A DNA stretch of 63,223 nucleotides, the filler included, from an uncultured bacterium (GTDB lineage: Bacteria > DYJV01): NCBI GenBank assembly GCA_964543655.1. It is 5 parts of 5 records of this genome, joined end to end, with 100 filler letters (N's around TTAATTAATTAA, not from the genome) between each part and the next. Parts side by side here need not be neighbours in the genome. Positions count along the whole stretch, not along the records: positions 1 to 6,043 come from CAZIZE010000089.1; 4 more parts are not named here. One strand, 5' to 3'. Both the position numbers and the translations under genes were made by a program. The number at the start of each line of letters is the position of its first letter. Within the stretch, counting starts at the first letter, position 1. Of this stretch, positions 1 to 59,240 are shown piece by piece. Below the pieces are notes generated by a model, which saw nothing but the letters and a program-made list of their open reading frames with translations, did no database searches and was not told where the DNA came from.

Positions 1-42
1 TCGAAATTCGAAAAAAATTAGTCTTTAGTCGATAGAATTTTG

Positions 43-246
43 TTAGGGTATTAAGATATAGATTTGGGATTTGGGGATTATATAAACAGTTTTTACCGAA
101 CTTTCCAACACATCTAATATACATTTTAAAATAAATTCTACAAATTTTGAACATTCACCTTTTTTATCACAATTTTCCAAAGCATTATAATATCCATCCT
201 AATTGTCTCGAATAATACTTTCAAGAGGTAAATATTTAAAAATAAA
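43..246 (-). pseudogene. Fic-family protein C-terminal remnant with internal stop
   Basis: Manual translation FKYLPLESIIRDN*DGYYNALENCDKKGECSKFVEFILKCILDVLE resembles the C-terminal helices of Fic proteins; in-frame TAG at 199-201, no start codon, no HPF motif. Confidence 0.6.
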
Positions 247-336
247 AATTTTGTTCTGTTTTTTTATTTTTTACCTTACTGTGCAGAGGTCTTATCAGGA
301 ATAGGTTTTCTTCATTTTAATCAATTTTCGAGTTGG

Positions 337-3300
337 TTACATAACAACTTTTGCAAAAGGAACAATTCTTTCCCAAAAAGAATTCCCACCATGAATGTAT
401 CTGTTTTTCATTTTCTCTGTGTCAACAAATCCATGGTCAGATAATAAATAAAAACTCTGAAAATTTTTTAAAATAGGTAAAATTCCCTTTTTAAATTCAT
501 CCAAAATAATGGTAAAAAGAGGGTATAAATCAAGTGTTGTGCTGTGTATTTTTTCATCTATAAAATTAAAATTAACAATATCATTTTTTGAAATTTTTTT
601 GATTTGTCTCTTTCCTGTAATGTGTTCACCCCATTTTAAAATATTCTTATTTTTTAACATTTCCCTAAAAGAGAAAGTATCAGTATGCCAATTTATTAAC
701 ATTGGGTAGTCAAATACTTTAAAACCAGACTGAATTAACTCATTTTTTATTAAAATCCATAAATCAAACCTTAGTGCATCGAAAATAAATAAATTTGAAT
801 CTATCTGGTTTAAAACATTTTCAATATATAGAATTCCGTCATATTTATCTATGTCCTGGCTATTTTCATAATCGTAAATTAAACTGTTATATAAGTTTGA
901 TACTTTATCAAACAAATCTTTATTAAAATAATCATTTAATTGGTTCTCATACATTAATTTTATATAGGAGAGGTTTAATGGTGCCACTACATTCTGAAAA
1001 ATTTTAACTCCTTTAAATTTATATTTTGAATTTATTAAATTAAAGAAATTCAAAAGTTCATTAAGAATGTGGTCTTTACTCTTTAATGACACCTGAAATT
1101 TATTAATTAAAAGCCTCTGTAAAATTTCATTTCTAATATGCTTCTTTATTATAGCAAATGATTCTGAATCTAAAAATTTAATTAACTCTTCATCTTTAAA
1201 ACTTTTTAAATTAAGCTCATTTATATGCTCATTTAATTCTTTAAAAATATCTGAACTATTAATTATAATGTTGTAAAGTTTTGTCCCTTCAACACTGTAT
1301 TTTGCAAGACTTTCTTTAAGATTGTTATATGTTTGAGATGATTCAGTAATCCAGAAAATAGTCTCTAAATCATCTCCTATTAATTTTTGAAAAAAATCTT
1401 TTAGTTCGCTATATTTTAATCTTTTTCCTTCTATTTCTTTAAGCTTTTCTTTTAAATTAAGCTCTTTTATTTTCCATTTTCCTTTTAATGCTTTTGCTAT
1501 AATTTTTAAAGTATTATCATTAATAAATGGTAAAATTAGTTCCAAATTTATTGTAGAAATATTGTTAAGATATAAAATTTGCATAACTTCATCTTTAAAA
1601 TTCTCTTCACCAATTAAAAAAGTTTCTATTTTTTCTCTATTTTCAGGTAAGTTTATTTGAGAGATAAAATTTTTTATTCCTTCTTTAATAATGTTTTGAA
1701 AATCTATATTAATTTCAGGTGGTTCTTGATTAATAACAAACCCACATTTACAAACAGGTGATGAGAAGAGTTGGGCACTTAAATTCTCATTACATTTTTC
1801 TGGCAATTTTTTTAACATTGAATTAATTTCATAAAAATCATATTTGAAGGTTAATTCTGGCACATAAAAAGATATTTTATTTAAAATTTTAAATTCATTT
1901 GTTGACTCAATTAACTCTTTTAAATTAAAGATATTGTCTGAGTAAAATTTATCATGAGCCTCTTGATAAAAATTAAAATAATCTTCGTAAAAGTCATTCC
2001 ATTTTATTATTAGTTTTTCAAATTCTTGAAATGAATATAGATATTCATCTATTTCAATTAAAAGTCTCTTTCTTTTATTTTCAATCTCTTCTGGTAATAT
2101 TAGAGCGTTATCAGTGAGATACAAATAAATTCTATTTATCTGGTGAAATTCTTTATTGAAAAATAGAAACAAAGAATCTAAATATTCTATATTGTTTTGA
2201 AATTCTGGATTTTCTTTCAGATAAGCAAGAAAAGCTTCAAGCTGTTCAGATGGTGATCCAGTTAATTTTATTGAATTTAAAAAAATTTTTAAATTATTTA
2301 TCAAAGATTCATCTAATCTAATTTTAGAAAATATAGTATAATCTTGATATTTATCAATATATTTTTCTATTTCAGAAATCTTTTTTCGATATTCACGAAT
2401 AAATTTAGATACTTCTTTCCACATATGTTTCTGGGTTACAAAAGTTGGAACATCTTCTGTTTCTCCCCATATAAAAGCTCCATTTTTTATATATGGCAAA
2501 TATTTATGATTAATTGTTTTTCCCTGTTTTAAAAATTGAATTTCTTTAAAAAATTGGTTTATATCTTTAAAATCAACAGGTTCATTAAATTCATTAAAAG
2601 GGATAAGATAGCCAGAAACTATTAAAACAGAGATTAGAATATAAAATCTATTATATGTTAATCCCCATTTACCTTTTTTAAAAATAGTTCTTAAATTAAA
2701 AATGTTTTGCTCATGATTAACAACATTTAAAATGTTTGAAATTAATTCATTGTTAACATCTATTTTTAAATAAAAATTCTCATTTTTTTTCTTTATAATT
2801 CCAAGAGGATTTAGAAAATTTTCAATTAAAGAAAAGAAACCTTTTTTATTTGCATCTTCAAATGAAATTTTTCCTTTTAAAATAAAATTATTAAAAAGAT
2901 TGGTTAGTTGAGCTTTAGGAACATAATCAATAAGTGGCATTATTTCAAAGTGTTTATAATGAACAGAATTTAAAGGAGTGTCAAAAACTGTTTTTAAAAA
3001 TTTTTCAAAAGGTAAAATTCCTGCTTCTTCAAGGTTTAAAATTACCTGATTATCACCTGATATAATTTTCCCTTTAAAAAATTTATCTGTAACAATTTCT
3101 TTAAATTCAAGCTCTTCCTTTTTTATTTCATCTGATAATTCATTATATTTATGTTTTAAATTTATTTTGCTGAAATAATTTATAATAAAATTAATTTCAT
3201 AATCTGAAAAAGGTGAAAGTTGCCAAAAAAGTATCAATTTTAAATATTGATTGTCATTGAATAGTTCTTTTAATGATTTTATCCAGTTATACTCTTCTAT

Positions 3301-4863
3301 AAAAGGGGATATAATACATAGATAACCATCAACATTTTCAGCAACATAAGATAGAAATCTCTCAAATTCATATTTCTGAGGAACTTTAAATATTGGCAAA
3401 ATAACAGCCTCTCTTTGAGTATTTTGCCATATAAATTTAACTTTTCTACCTTCTAAGACATTGTTTAAAGGTAGAAAATTATATTTTAGATTTTTTAAAA
3501 TTGTTTTAAATAAAAACTCCTTATTATGAAATTTTTCAGTCTCTTTTTTTATATCAGCTTTTATTTTTAAAACTTCTTTAATTGATGCATCTATAAAGTA
3601 GGTTTCACCATCTTTTTTTAAAAACATTCTATTTTGAACAAGTGGTTCTAATATTCCATCTTTAACAAATTCATAATTTATATTTTCATTAAATGTTGAA
3701 AATTTTTTCAATAAGATTTCAGCTATCTCTCTATAATTTTTTCTTTTTTCAGATGGTGAAATTTCAGTTAGTATAAGTATTTTTATAATAGAGAGAGCTG
3801 TTTCTGTTAATTTGTCATTTTTAATTATAGAATCAATATTCTGTTTGTAGTAGAGATATACAGATGTTACAAATGCTGTATAGTCAGGTATTTCTCTAAT
3901 TCTATCTTCAAAGTTGTCATAAATTTTATCAGCAGTAATAAGGTAATCGTAAGGCTTTTCTAAATTTAACTTTACTTCATTAACAACAAAGTGAATAACC
4001 CCTCTATGCTGGGAAAAAATTGGAGTTAGCCCTGATAAAAATTTAACTGTTATTGGATGCAGAGGATATGTTTTCTTAAAATTATCAAATGAAATCTTAA
4101 AATTAGGATAGTAGTTTTTAAAATTATTAAAAACCTCTTCTATAAATTTTTCTGCTCCTCTTTTCTTAAGAACAATTCTTTTGTCAATAATATCTTCTAT
4201 GTGTGAGGAAGTTAAATTAATTTTTATAGGGTATCTATCTTTAATCCTGTTGAACATAGAAGATGATATGTGACCTGTATCCTCTATCCATTCTTGCAAA
4301 GATGCAACAATCCATAATGGGTTATTAAAAGAATACTCACCAAGATATTGTAAAAATCTCACATCTTCATAAAAAGATGCTGGATTTTCTTTTGAACGTA
4401 AAAATTCACTTAATTCATCAATTATAATAACAGTTGGCTTATTTATACATTTTTTAAAAACTTCGTCTCTATTTAAAACTTTATTCTGATAATCAAAATA
4501 TTCCAATATTATACTTTCAAGGGATCTTGAAGATGGGTATTTGGTTAATAAAATTTTTTTTGTGTTTGTATGAGGAAAGTTTTTAAATTCAGGAAAGTTA
4601 TCCTTTATTTTTTTACAATCATTTAAAATAATATATAGATATGACAAAAAATGAGATTTTCCACTTCCAAAATTACCTTTTACAAATATTCCGGAGCCTT
4701 TATTTTTATAAATTTTTTCAAGAATAATTTTTAATGCCTTAAACACCTCGTCAGTTAAAACAAATGATTGGTATAAATTATCTCTATTATTATCAATATC
4801 TTCAATATTAATAACAAGATCAATATTAGGAATTTCTACAATATCTTTTAATTTTTTTCCCAT
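337..4863 (-). CDS. BrxC/DUF6079-like P-loop ATPase fused to a C-terminal PglZ-like (alkaline phosphatase superfamily) domain
   Basis: 1508 aa; Walker A GNFGSGKS, Walker B VIIIDELSEF, YPLHP motif, C..CKCGF motif; C-terminal FIFDALRFDLW, IDEKIH, LLSDHGF, HGGNSFWERIVP. Confidence 0.75.
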   Translation of the reverse strand: MGKKLKDIVEIPNIDLVINIEDIDNNRDNLYQSFVLTDEVFKALKIILEKIYKNKGSGIFVKGNFGSGKSHFLSYLYIILNDCKKIKDNFPEFKNFPHTNTKKILLTKYPSSRSLESIILEYFDYQNKVLNRDEVFKKCINKPTVIIIDELSEFLRSKENPASFYEDVRFLQYLGEYSFNNPLWIVASLQEWIEDTGHISSSMFNRIKDRYPIKINLTSSHIEDIIDKRIVLKKRGAEKFIEEVFNNFKNYYPNFKISFDNFKKTYPLHPITVKFLSGLTPIFSQHRGVIHFVVNEVKLNLEKPYDYLITADKIYDNFEDRIREIPDYTAFVTSVYLYYKQNIDSIIKNDKLTETALSIIKILILTEISPSEKRKNYREIAEILLKKFSTFNENINYEFVKDGILEPLVQNRMFLKKDGETYFIDASIKEVLKIKADIKKETEKFHNKEFLFKTILKNLKYNFLPLNNVLEGRKVKFIWQNTQREAVILPIFKVPQKYEFERFLSYVAENVDGYLCIISPFIEEYNWIKSLKELFNDNQYLKLILFWQLSPFSDYEINFIINYFSKINLKHKYNELSDEIKKEELEFKEIVTDKFFKGKIISGDNQVILNLEEAGILPFEKFLKTVFDTPLNSVHYKHFEIMPLIDYVPKAQLTNLFNNFILKGKISFEDANKKGFFSLIENFLNPLGIIKKKNENFYLKIDVNNELISNILNVVNHEQNIFNLRTIFKKGKWGLTYNRFYILISVLIVSGYLIPFNEFNEPVDFKDINQFFKEIQFLKQGKTINHKYLPYIKNGAFIWGETEDVPTFVTQKHMWKEVSKFIREYRKKISEIEKYIDKYQDYTIFSKIRLDESLINNLKIFLNSIKLTGSPSEQLEAFLAYLKENPEFQNNIEYLDSLFLFFNKEFHQINRIYLYLTDNALILPEEIENKRKRLLIEIDEYLYSFQEFEKLIIKWNDFYEDYFNFYQEAHDKFYSDNIFNLKELIESTNEFKILNKISFYVPELTFKYDFYEINSMLKKLPEKCNENLSAQLFSSPVCKCGFVINQEPPEINIDFQNIIKEGIKNFISQINLPENREKIETFLIGEENFKDEVMQILYLNNISTINLELILPFINDNTLKIIAKALKGKWKIKELNLKEKLKEIEGKRLKYSELKDFFQKLIGDDLETIFWITESSQTYNNLKESLAKYSVEGTKLYNIIINSSDIFKELNEHINELNLKSFKDEELIKFLDSESFAIIKKHIRNEILQRLLINKFQVSLKSKDHILNELLNFFNLINSKYKFKGVKIFQNVVAPLNLSYIKLMYENQLNDYFNKDLFDKVSNLYNSLIYDYENSQDIDKYDGILYIENVLNQIDSNLFIFDALRFDLWILIKNELIQSGFKVFDYPMLINWHTDTFSFREMLKNKNILKWGEHITGKRQIKKISKNDIVNFNFIDEKIHSTTLDLYPLFTIILDEFKKGILPILKNFQSFYLLSDHGFVDTEKMKNRYIHGGNSFWERIVPFAKVVM

Positions 4864-5735
4864 TTTTCAGCTTTTTTTAAATATCCATAAAGTTTTTTGG
4901 CATTTGGTTTTTTTGCAAGAATTTCTTCAATTAATTTTTTAAAACCTGAATAATCTTTTTTAGCTTCATATATTTTAAAAACAGTTTGTATTAAAATATT
5001 GTCTTCTGGCTCTTTAAAAAGAACTTCCTGCAAATACTTCAAGGCATTTTCAAAATCTTTTAATCTATAATATGTGTATCCAAGCATTTTGTAAAGAAAA
5101 AAGCTTTCTTTAATTGTCATAAGATTTTTATAAATTTTTAAAGCATCTTCAAATCTGTTACTTTTTCTATAAAATCCTGCAAGTAATAGATTTAAGTCAT
5201 AGTCATCTTTGTAAGAGGGTAAGATCATAAGATTTTCAATTTCATTAATAGCATCAGAAAGTGGTAATTTTTCAAATTTCTCTTTATAAATTTTATAGTT
5301 TCTATTTTTTTTGTTACTATTTGATTTTATCTTTATTGGCAATTTATTTATTAATTTTTTTGATTCATTTGTTGAAAAATTCCTTTCAATAACGCTTTTT
5401 AAAAAATAGTAAAATTTATCACTGAAATCTGGAAGATCTAAAATAATACTCTGAATAAAATCTTTTATCTCCTCTCTATTCTTTCTCTTTTCTAATATAA
5501 GTATATAAGTCTGATTAAAAAACTCATCATTTTTAAATTCACCCAATAAATTATTTGCCTTAGTATATGCTTCATCTATTTTATCAATTTTATTTAATAA
5601 AAAAATTTCATACTTTTTTAAAAAGTTATTTGTAGGATAAATAGCAAAAGCTTCATTTAATAATTTTAAAGCTTCTTCTAAATTGTTATTTTTTTGGAGA
5701 GAAATTAATTTACTGATATATTTTTTTAATGTCAT
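4848..5735 (-). CDS. Tetratricopeptide-repeat protein
   Basis: 295 aa with TPR-like helical pairs (LAGFYRKSNRFEDALKIY, LGYTYYRLKDFENALKYLQEVLFKEP); overlaps the start of the ATPase gene by 16 nt. Confidence 0.8.
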   Translation of the reverse strand: MTLKKYISKLISLQKNNNLEEALKLLNEAFAIYPTNNFLKKYEIFLLNKIDKIDEAYTKANNLLGEFKNDEFFNQTYILILEKRKNREEIKDFIQSIILDLPDFSDKFYYFLKSVIERNFSTNESKKLINKLPIKIKSNSNKKNRNYKIYKEKFEKLPLSDAINEIENLMILPSYKDDYDLNLLLAGFYRKSNRFEDALKIYKNLMTIKESFFLYKMLGYTYYRLKDFENALKYLQEVLFKEPEDNILIQTVFKIYEAKKDYSGFKKLIEEILAKKPNAKKLYGYLKKAEKWEKN

Positions 5736-5935
5736 TTAACTAAACCCAAATTTTTTTACTATATTGCATATTTTTTATTTTTTTTCAAAGAAAATATATT
5801 TTTTAAATCAAAAGATAAGCAAGCATAAGAAAAGTTGAAAAAGATTTACATTTCTCATTAAGAGTTGAACTAAATTTTAAACAAAATCAAGCATAAAATC
5901 ATAAATTCTCAAGATAATTGACAATAATTTACAAA

Positions 5936-6043
5936 AAAGCAATTCCCTTTCTATTCGGGAATGTTCGAATCTTAACAAATCCTTTGTTTCAAATTAGTGA
6001 AGATACAGTCGCAATTCCCTTTCTATTCGGGAATGTTCGAATG
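5936..6043 (-). CRISPR. Trailer end of a CRISPR array (2 repeats, 1 spacer), cut by the contig end
   Basis: 32-nt identical core at 5939-5970 and 6011-6042, period 72. Full repeat on minus strand ATTCGAACATTCCCGAATAGAAAGGGAATTGCGAC with ATTCCC/GGGAAT hairpin; 37-nt spacer 5971-6007; left copy degenerate at its 3' end. Confidence 0.85.
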
Positions 6044-6143
6044 NNNNNNNNNNNNNNNNNNNNNNNNNNNNNNNNNNNNNNNNNNNNTTAATTAATTAAN
6101 NNNNNNNNNNNNNNNNNNNNNNNNNNNNNNNNNNNNNNNNNNN
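6044..6143. other. Artificial contig linker
   Basis: N run with central TTAATTAATTAA six-frame stop. Confidence 0.99.
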
Positions 6144-6617
6144 ATCATTATGATATGCACCATGCATAATTTCATACAATGTATTGTAGCGATTTTCTGG
6201 TTTTTTATTTTCCTGAACAAGGTAAAGATATTGCGCGTACATCCCTTCAATTGTTAAAGGCAAATTTGGATTAGAAACTTTAAATCTATTTCTGTAGTAC
6301 CTGCTCAATAAATTTTTAATTTTATGAATATTAACCCTCTCCATTTTCAAGTCTTCAAAGCTAATGCTCATATCTTCAAGTGCATTTTTAATTACTGATG
6401 TTTTTGCATAATATGAGATAAGTTTTTTTAAACCTTCAAAATAAGAAAATATACGTGAAGACTCTGCTTCTGTAATGGCTTTTAATTGGTCAAAGTGAGC
6501 ACTTCGCATTCGAGAAGATGACTTTGTAACAGCAATGAAAATAAGTGTTGTAGATAAAAATAGAATGGTTATTACAAGAATAAGTATTAATTTTAATCTA
6601 AACGTAAGGTATTTCAT
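6144..6617 (-). CDS. N-terminal part of a membrane sensor, probably a methyl-accepting chemotaxis protein (truncated by the contig end)
   Basis: N-terminal TM helix followed by Cache-like periplasmic sequence (AQYLYL..N..P, Y...H..YH); ORF runs into the gap. Confidence 0.6.
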
Positions 6618-37382: not shown

Positions 37383-37482
37383 NNNNNNNNNNNNNNNNNN
37401 NNNNNNNNNNNNNNNNNNNNNNNNNNTTAATTAATTAANNNNNNNNNNNNNNNNNNNNNNNNNNNNNNNNNNNNNNNNNNNN
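37383..37482. other. Artificial contig linker
   Basis: N run with TTAATTAATTAA. Confidence 0.99.
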
Positions 37483-52843: not shown

Positions 52844-52943
52844 NNNNNNNNNNNNNNNNNNNNNNNNNNNNNNNNNNNNNNNNNNNNTTAATTAATTAAN
52901 NNNNNNNNNNNNNNNNNNNNNNNNNNNNNNNNNNNNNNNNNNN
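52844..52943. other. Artificial contig linker
   Basis: N run with TTAATTAATTAA. Confidence 0.99.
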
Positions 52944-59140: not shown

Positions 59141-59240
59141 NNNNNNNNNNNNNNNNNNNNNNNNNNNNNNNNNNNNNNNNNNNNTTAATTAATTAANNNN
59201 NNNNNNNNNNNNNNNNNNNNNNNNNNNNNNNNNNNNNNNN
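59141..59240. other. Artificial contig linker
   Basis: N run with TTAATTAATTAA. Confidence 0.99.

Follow-up and report, generated by a model that had tools for sequence, protein, structure and literature searches.

In type 1 bacteriophage exclusion (BREX), BrxB bridges the ATPase BrxC and the protein PglZ in an ATP-dependent core complex (PMC13326643). The PglZ of BREX cleaves cyclic and linear oligonucleotides (PMC12205998). PglZ is also found outside BREX, and the text of one survey places it in the type-3 BR and HerA/FtsK systems (Rakesh and Krishnan, PMC12839542). The window studied here (the whole stretch of DNA analyzed, 63,223 nt from an uncultured bacterium) carries at positions 1–6043 an operon of two minus-strand genes, one for a tetratricopeptide repeat (TPR) protein and the other for a protein of 1508 residues that joins a BrxC-like AAA+ ATPase to a PglZ domain. 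The original prediction, made from the sequence alone, had described this pair as a stripped two-gene BREX derivative lying next to the end of a clustered regularly interspaced short palindromic repeats (CRISPR) array. The pair does recur in other genomes, without a methyltransferase and outside complete BREX operons. We favor, at a probability of roughly 60%, the reading that the locus is an intact, self-contained, methylase-free two-gene operon of a conserved and undescribed BREX-related family, most likely serving in defense against phage or mobile DNA.

The first part of the fusion protein resembles BrxC. The protein matched DUF6079 in Pfam (E = 2.6e-32), BrxC in PADLOC (2e-20), and BREX_BrxC in NCBIfam (2e-24), the last scoring 86 bits, below the equivalog cut-off of 400. 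It has ∼34 near-full-length relatives at 36%–57% identity, and the profile of the family, run against PDB sequences, matched BrxC chains at E values of 1.6e-10 to 3.6e-9. An AlphaFold model of residues 1–1148 (predicted local distance difference test [pLDDT] 86.7) gave BrxC as its best Foldseek matches (9zll_D, E = 9.7e-11, TMt 0.53; then 9zdx_C), followed by ORC/Cdc6 and other AAA+ proteins. As in the type 1 BREX core BrxC:BrxB:PglZ (Acinetobacter, E. fergusonii, and Salmonella; PDB 9zdx, 9zll, 9zn5, 9nv3), the Walker motifs are intact, with G63, G66, G68, K69, S70, H71, D149, and E150 invariant in 52 sequences. Residues 1 to ∼550 are, by profile and model, a predicted BrxC-type AAA+ ATPase, and a P-loop ATPase of the BrxC/PglY type, one mark of BREX, is in place. 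The helical region that follows contains an invariant cluster of one histidine and three cysteines (Table 1), which may form a zinc site.

The second mark of BREX, a phosphatase-fold protein of the PglZ type, is also there, but as a C-terminal domain and not as a separate protein. A model of residues 1149–1508 (pLDDT 91.2) matched PorX (8thp_A, E = 1.4e-8) and the Acinetobacter BREX PglZ (9zn5_B, E = 3.5e-6). The C-terminal profile likewise found PorX (1e-4) and PglZ (9nv3_C, 1.7e-3) in the PDB, with the motifs D.LR.D.W, P..T, and Y.HGG.S..E..P aligned. The fusion protein carries the PglZ motif residues D1362, T1396, D1436, H1440, D1476-H1477, and H1491, the same set of metal ligands and threonine as the alkaline-phosphatase fold of type 1 BREX PglZ. 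All six metal ligands (D1362, D1436, H1440, D1476, H1477, H1491) were invariant in 53 sequences, and the threonine nucleophile was kept in 46 of these. The N-terminal P-loop and C-terminal PglZ-type motifs that had been read from the translation are all present, Walker A, Walker B, and PglZ residues alike. Unlike BREX PglZ, the operon's PglZ part has neither an N-terminal BrxB-binding domain nor a C-terminal Ig-like domain. By profile and predicted fold, the last ∼150 residues are a minimal PglZ metallo-phosphodiesterase, predicted to be catalytically complete.

The joining of the two parts is not peculiar to the window. Each of the 52 full-length relatives whose 3′ end is intact carries a DHG...HG tail, which is missing from two frameshifted or truncated ORFs (open reading frames; loci L041 and L055). 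We also ran the C-terminal profile against a protein library of 1.84 billion representatives, clustered at 50% identity, which yielded 134 matches at E ≤ 1e-30, a number that rose to 532 at E ≤ 1e-10. Of these matches 150 were listed, and every listed protein of 1259–1851 residues had its PglZ match at the extreme C terminus; the short proteins in this set ended with the PglZ domain as well, as 5′-truncated gene calls would. Five of the 150, the longest representatives (1780–1851 residues), were scanned for a form with the TPR protein fused on (a "Rosetta stone"), and no TPR repeats were found in them. Judging by these sequences, a BrxC–PglZ fusion is the normal state of the family. In a protein atlas, DUF6079 clusters were named only "hypothetical protein" and TPR clusters carried generic names, and we found no description of a TPR plus BrxC–PglZ architecture in the titles and abstract beginnings of the literature searched.

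The TPR protein is the constant partner of the fusion. It matched TPR_14 (E = 1.2e-12) and further TPR families in Pfam. We gathered 80 related loci from species-representative genomes, called their ORFs, and clustered these by BLAST; a member of the same TPR family was found in 55 of the 80 and in 53 of the 70 evaluable loci, i.e., those in which an intact fusion-gene start has 1.1 kb or more of sequence upstream. This answers for the TPR gene the question of how often homologs of the fusion protein sit beside it, and 53 family members align over their full length. In 28 loci the TPR gene was the next gene upstream on the same strand, and the two genes shared 16 nt in 10 of these loci and 4 nt in seven. 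Within the window's overlap, the ATG of the fusion gene falls in the Lys-Trp codons (AAA TGG) of the TPR tail, and TPR proteins of the window's clade (clade A) conserve K/R-W in their C-terminal tail (alignment A6) at the place that coincides with this ATG. By the alignment, the 16-nt overlap has been preserved by this dual-coding constraint. Pairwise identities of the TPR and fusion proteins rose and fell together: across 37 loci (666 pairs) the Spearman coefficient was 0.89, a value reached in none of 2000 permutations, and it was 0.89 within clade A as well. This shows joint inheritance of the two genes, with shared genome ancestry contributing to the correlation. Co-folding of the TPR protein with residues 1–700 of the fusion gave a score of 0.36 versus 0.00 for the best control, which is weak support for binding: 0.36 was reached by 58 of 80 solved complexes and two of 110 mismatched pairs, and scores of 0.60 or below comprised seven of the 80 solved complexes and both mismatched pairs that passed. 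The co-fold runs shared at least 98% of contacts, with a partner pLDDT of at least 79. As a separate observation, three loci of the most divergent clade (L072, L073, L075) have the TPR family member transcribed divergently, on the opposite strand, and not upstream on the same strand. The fusion proteins of that clade, from Acidobacteriota, Binatota, and Myxococcota, are 1428–1478 residues long.

Table 1. Coordinates of the features discussed, counted along the whole window
Feature	Positions	Strand	Basis or remark
Fusion gene, BrxC-like AAA+ ATPase/PglZ, 1508 aa (P0001)	337..4863	-	ORF, translation, family matches
N-terminal AAA+ (ORC/Cdc6-type, BrxC-like) ATPase region, predicted, about residues 1-550	3214..4863	-	Profile, predicted fold
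Walker A GNFGSGKSH, residues 63-71	4651-4677	-	Translation
Walker B IIIDELSE, residues 146-153	4405-4425	-	Translation
H970, C1024, C1038, C1040 cluster, in the helical stretch that separates the ATPase part from the PglZ part	1744..1956	-	Invariant in 52 sequences, all five clades
Minimal PglZ domain (alkaline-phosphatase superfamily), predicted, about residues 1355-1508	340..801	-	Profile, predicted fold
TPR partner gene, 295 aa (P0002)	4848..5735	-	ORF, TPR families
16-nt overlap of TPR stop and fusion start (translational coupling)	4848..4863	-	ORFs, translations
AT-rich spacer, 200 nt, from TPR start codon to array	5736..5935	.	Sequence inspected
End of class 1 CRISPR array: degenerate terminal repeat 5936-5970, spacer 5971-6007, repeat 6008-6042	5936..6042	- (inferred)	Contig end cuts the array
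Possible remnant, C-terminal, of a Fic-family gene; frame of 51 codons bounded by stops	43..198	-	Best PDB matches are Fic, non-significant
Artificial joints, not biology	6044-6143, 37383-37482, 52844-52943, 59141-59240	none	N runs around TTAATTAATTAA

What accompanies BrxC and PglZ in BREX is missing here. The operon contig (6 kb) has no DNA-modifying enzyme among its ORFs; its source contig measures only 6089 nt, so the absence of further brx genes there says little by itself. It is the relatives with long flanks, and not the short window contig, that bear out the lack of pglX/pglXI, brxA, brxB, and brxL. We scanned 144 flanking ORFs of at least 120 residues, up to two on each side of the core, out of 151 selected (of the seven left out, four had been scanned already, two fell in the same cluster as one of those four, and one was an ORF of 1062 residues). 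N6 DNA methylase, Brx, and Cas families were not among the 25 commonest Pfam and PADLOC families of these ORFs, a list that excludes families seen in a single ORF. In five carrier genomes the nearest N6-methylase match (PF02384/PF07669) was 26 kb away or on another contig, and the complete chromosome among them (G002) had no PF02384 match and a sub-threshold Eco57I match ∼660 kb away. No DNA-modifying enzyme was thus found in the operon, the PAPS (phosphoadenosine phosphosulfate) reductase of type 4 not having been searched for by name. Neither the shared clusters nor the PADLOC tally of the 144 flanks contained BrxA, BrxB/BrxF (iSTAND), BrxL, or BrxH partners, isolated cases being possible. 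The pair does not lie in complete BREX operons. Since the modification enzyme, BrxA, BrxB, and BrxL are lacking, the operon would work like a BREX core but is not a BREX type.

Further differences set it apart from each described system. In type 1 BREX, the metal-dependent nuclease PglZ shares an ATP-dependent complex with BrxC, and here the two are a single polypeptide; unlike type 1 BREX, the operon has no BrxB bridge, PglX methyltransferase, BrxA, or BrxL. BREX types 2 and 3 (BrxHI/BrxHII) resemble the family in that a helicase accompanies the ATPase and PglZ; unlike in those types, the helicase is optional in the relatives, where a RecQ carrying RQC and HRDC domains or else an SNF2 protein takes this place, the operon contig shows no helicase, and there is no PglW or PglXI. 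PorX, a response regulator of type IX secretion, is the best structural match and has the motifs D..R.D.W, P..T, D...H, DHG, and HGG in common with the PglZ part. Unlike PorX, the fusion protein has no receiver domain (no Response_reg match), joins PglZ to a DNA-type AAA+ ATPase, and lies in another genomic context. STAND/Avs-type defense NTPases (STAND, signal transduction ATPases with numerous domains) combine an NTPase with TPR sensors and a nuclease-type effector, a likeness that we treat as a lead only: the operon's TPR is a separate protein, its ATPase is ORC/Cdc6/BrxC-like and not NACHT or NB-ARC, and we claim no membership. In the type-3 BR and HerA/FtsK systems, as the survey's text presents them, PglZ is likewise presumed to be the nuclease effector, next to an ATPase of the BrxC/DUF499/DUF6079 type and, in many cases, an SNF2 helicase. 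They differ in that type-3 BR combines a stand-alone PglZ with an iSTAND protein and an N6 methyltransferase, that the HerA/FtsK system has seven components, and that neither is described there with a BrxC–PglZ fusion, a TPR partner, or RecQ. The main text of the survey contains no term for TPR/tetratricopeptide, RecQ, or a BrxC–PglZ fusion, and its supplementary tables may list such loci (PMC12839542).

Helicases are the recurrent additional genes in relatives. A RecQ-family helicase (∼790 residues, with DEAD, Helicase_C, RecQ_Zn_bind, RQC, and HRDC domains) was present in 24 loci, where it lies between the TPR and fusion genes whenever both are in view, often with a 4-nt overlap with the fusion gene. 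An SNF2 helicase lay near the fusion gene in 12 loci, and these proteins match PADLOC BrxHI/BrxHII (e.g., E = 8.6e-47). Loci of the window's clade have no helicase inside the operon. This recurrence of RecQ or SNF2 suggests that the helicase is an interchangeable third module. The only other clusters seen in more than five loci were multi-domain sensor-kinase/response-regulator proteins (16) and one unannotated cluster (nine). The families found among the 144 flanking ORFs included PIN (five), receiver domains (four), AAA_14 (three), and triosephosphate isomerase, PrmA, and FKBP (two each).

Several features of these neighborhoods deserve mention in their own right. The operon RecQs (L028:7325-9655, L063:7605-9998, L049:7071-9890, and 21 others) have ∼170 extra residues between Helicase_C and the zinc-binding domain, and that of L049, a locus without a separate TPR gene, has a further N-terminal extension of ∼165 residues. 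Some clade A loci without a TPR gene encode AAA_14/DUF4143 ATPases (L023:3859-6404, L074:7359-8708; PADLOC candidate PDC-S01, E down to 9.9e-82), either between the SNF2 and fusion genes or directly upstream of the fusion gene. In another locus lacking the TPR gene, a phage-type integrase (L033:3169-4410) ends 27 nt upstream of the fusion gene, which hints at carriage on a mobile element.

The fusion gene is sparsely distributed. It was present in five of 121 genomes of one order, four of these five with RecQ adjacent, and in seven of 151 genomes of the order containing Thermodesulfovibrio. A FastTree phylogeny resolved five clades, with RecQ confined to one of them (the sister clade) and SNF2 scattered, on a tree that is flagged for long-branch joins and compositional bias, including that of the window's sequence. 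Clade A mixes Nitrospirota, Thermodesulfobacteriota, Nitrospinota, Elusimicrobiota, and Margulisiibacteriota. A sparse distribution that crosses phyla is typical of accessory modules that move horizontally, as defense systems do; the patchy counts of the gene and of RecQ, the cross-phylum clade, and the L033 integrase all contribute to this pattern.

The strongest competitor of a defense role is genome maintenance, in which the AAA+/PglZ protein, with RecQ or SNF2 and the TPR protein as adaptor, would act in repair, replication restart, or the removal of blocked ends, with PglZ working on damaged termini. In its favor, 24 loci have a canonical-looking RecQ with zinc-binding, RQC, and HRDC domains as part of the operon. 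Three carrier genomes, a complete chromosome included, have no RecQ_Zn_bind match other than that of the operon, and there are housekeeping genes among the flanks. We nevertheless consider this reading unlikely. The fusion gene occurs in few of the genomes sampled from two orders, clade A crosses phyla, and RecQ itself is dispensable in the first of these orders, where 37 of 121 genomes have a match. The operon RecQs cover only positions ∼15–66 of the RecQ_Zn_bind profile, in contrast to 1–66 for most other RecQ matches. The window's clade has no helicase within the operon, and both fused parts are otherwise known from BREX defense (PglZ also from PorX signaling).

Poorer still are the prospects of an enzyme that tunes a second messenger without cutting DNA, its PglZ domain hydrolyzing cyclic or linear oligonucleotides as in PorX under the regulation of the ATPase and TPR parts. 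The best C-terminal structural matches are indeed PorX structures, one with pGpG bound, and cleavage of cyclic and linear oligonucleotides is ascribed to BREX PglZ itself (PMC12205998). Such an enzyme is made improbable by the company PglZ keeps: neither protein has a receiver, CARF, SAVED, cyclase, or other signaling domain that we could find, the 144 flanking ORFs included no conserved cyclase neighbor, an ORC/Cdc6-like AAA+ ATPase of the DNA-binding type makes up the N-terminal half, and the recurrent extra partners are DNA helicases.

The CRISPR array beside the operon had raised a further option, an accessory of a type III CRISPR locus. Two identical 32-nt copies (5939-5970 and 6011-6042; two in the window versus 0.00 expected from 100 shuffles) first delimit the array, and comparison with a second contig, L081, gives the true repeat unit of 35 nt and a spacer of 37 nt. 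L081 was the sole other contig with this repeat in a metagenome scan that allowed a degenerate loop; it carries the identical 35-nt repeat, its spacer is another one and measures 38 nt, and a cas6 gene lies 190 nt from the repeat (PADLOC Cas6, E = 6.1e-57). Only two repeats are visible in the window because its contig stops at position 6043 inside the array, and the L081 contig likewise ends within the array, with two repeats in view. Direct repeats, unique spacers, and a repeat linked to cas genes are all present, and the identical repeat beside cas6 makes the window array class 1 and Cas6-processed. The Cas6 gene itself (L081:313-1266, minus strand) encodes a cysteine-rich stretch (C..C....C) near its N terminus.

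Array orientation could be approached from two features. The repeat copy closest to the TPR gene deviates in its outer 3 nt, and the minus-strand repeat ends in ATTGCGAC, which we take to be close to the usual 8-nt handle. Together, this degenerate outer repeat and the ATTGCGAC 3′ end place the array, by inference, on the minus strand; the earlier claim of a trailer that faces the TPR gene on the same strand is consistent with both features and goes no further than they do. The flanks of the window and L081 arrays could not be aligned beyond their AT-richness, so they offer no conserved leader for orientation. The 37-nt spacer had no exact match among viral contigs.

The array is genuine, sits where the assembly broke, and looks to be adjacent to the operon by coincidence. 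That the operon begins 200 nt from a genuine Cas6-type array end, that cas6 holds the same position beside the same repeat in L081, and that Cas10 occurs elsewhere in the genome in three of the five carrier genomes searched would suit a cyclic-oligoadenylate turnover enzyme or an effector activated by cyclic oligoadenylate. Among the 80 related loci, however, no CRISPR array was found within the fetched flanks, and the window repeat was absent from all of them. Six repeat-like stretches in five of these loci were rejected, being either tandem repeats within coding sequence or simple duplications. In the five carrier genomes the contigs with the fusion gene are C42, C1, C70, C16, and C40, and Cas1, Csm1, and Cmr2 matches were never on these contigs, being elsewhere or missing; the complete chromosome G002 carries the fusion gene and has no match to any of the three. 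Searches of Pfam, NCBIfam, and PADLOC matched no CARF, SAVED, or ring-nuclease fold in either protein. For the family as a whole, the type III reading is largely refuted and retains only a slight chance at this locus, and the array is best explained by simple co-location, the null hypothesis also put forward in the original prediction. In annotation, one should bear in mind that chance neighbors arise where a CRISPR array meets a contig end.

Least probable of all is a decaying, non-functional remnant of a once complete BREX operon, for which only the two BREX-like parts that are left and a possible gene remnant downstream could speak, and which sequence conservation contradicts: neither ORF is broken, 10 other loci have kept the 16-nt overlap, the catalytic residues are all conserved across 52–53 sequences from five clades, and at least 134 clusters at 50% identity show this architecture.

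The coordinates of the array, the 200-nt gap, the TPR gene, the 16-nt overlap, and the 1508-residue gene were confirmed, with both genes on one strand and the array predicted to share it. Some 340 nt remain 3′ of the fusion gene on the contig. The 51-codon frame said to be a Fic remnant is there and is a possible one, with no Pfam match at E ≤ 0.01 and with best PDB matches to Fic proteins at a non-significant E of 0.17–0.32. A promoter scan gave 52 promoter-like sites versus 45.3 expected, and no terminators; a search of positions 1–6043 with Rfam matched nothing. The window, with a G+C content of 30% overall, consists of five contigs separated by linkers of 44 N, TTAATTAATTAA, and 44 N, such that ORFs spanning the joints (e.g., 6096..6617, minus strand) are partly artifacts and genes of different contigs are not neighbors. 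Homologs of the relatives' RecQ and SNF2 proteins were not found by tblastn in the other four contigs. On ORF sizes and order alone, the third contig (37483-52843) resembles a ribosomal-protein/secY/adk/map cluster.

By analogy with the type 1 BREX core, we take the operon to be probably a DNA-targeting defense module. The ATPase half would bind DNA and oligomerize on it in an ATP-dependent manner, and would position the covalently attached PglZ domain to nick or cut. The fusion would make the BrxB bridge unnecessary, a peptide bond taking its place. The TPR protein may serve as a sensor of, or a brake on, the ATPase half, and the helicase, where present, would supply unwinding and feed DNA. 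Since there is no modification enzyme, it would have to be the TPR sensor or DNA structure, and not methylation, that tells self from non-self. A more specific proposal, which we put forward tentatively and rate at a little under even odds, is that the family represents a new methylation-independent immune system, in which a TPR sensor licenses a single-chain BrxC–PglZ in response to a protein or DNA-structure cue, with RecQ and SNF2 as exchangeable motors.

Several observations weigh against a defense operon of this kind. In 17 of the 70 evaluable loci no recognizable TPR gene lay nearby, though in two of them (L039, L062) the contig begins inside the RecQ gene. The co-fold lends weak support to binding of the TPR protein, and covers residues 1–700 of the fusion only. 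The PglZ domain is far smaller than BREX PglZ, with ∼150 residues after the first metal ligand, and the Pfam PglZ model (PF08665) was non-significant on the window's protein itself. The flanks do not form a clear defense island, with housekeeping genes beside the five PIN toxins and few PADLOC matches, and the window contig is too short to reveal a helicase or other genes nearby in the genome. We know of no way in which a BREX-like nuclease without a methyltransferase spares host DNA. Finally, the defense and nuclease roles of the family members are predicted, from sequence, models, and analogy.

How BREX stops phage is still being worked out, and recent work has brought BrxC, BrxB, and PglZ together as one core complex with PglZ as a nuclease. 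If the tentative proposal of a methylation-independent immune system is true, no smaller version of the BREX effector machinery would exist in nature than this family, and it would give a direct handle on how BrxC controls PglZ. A single-chain BrxC–PglZ with one small partner would be a minimal system for studying how an ATPase gates the PglZ active site, and a methylase-free operon would be a system in which to ask what replaces methylation as the signal that separates self from non-self.

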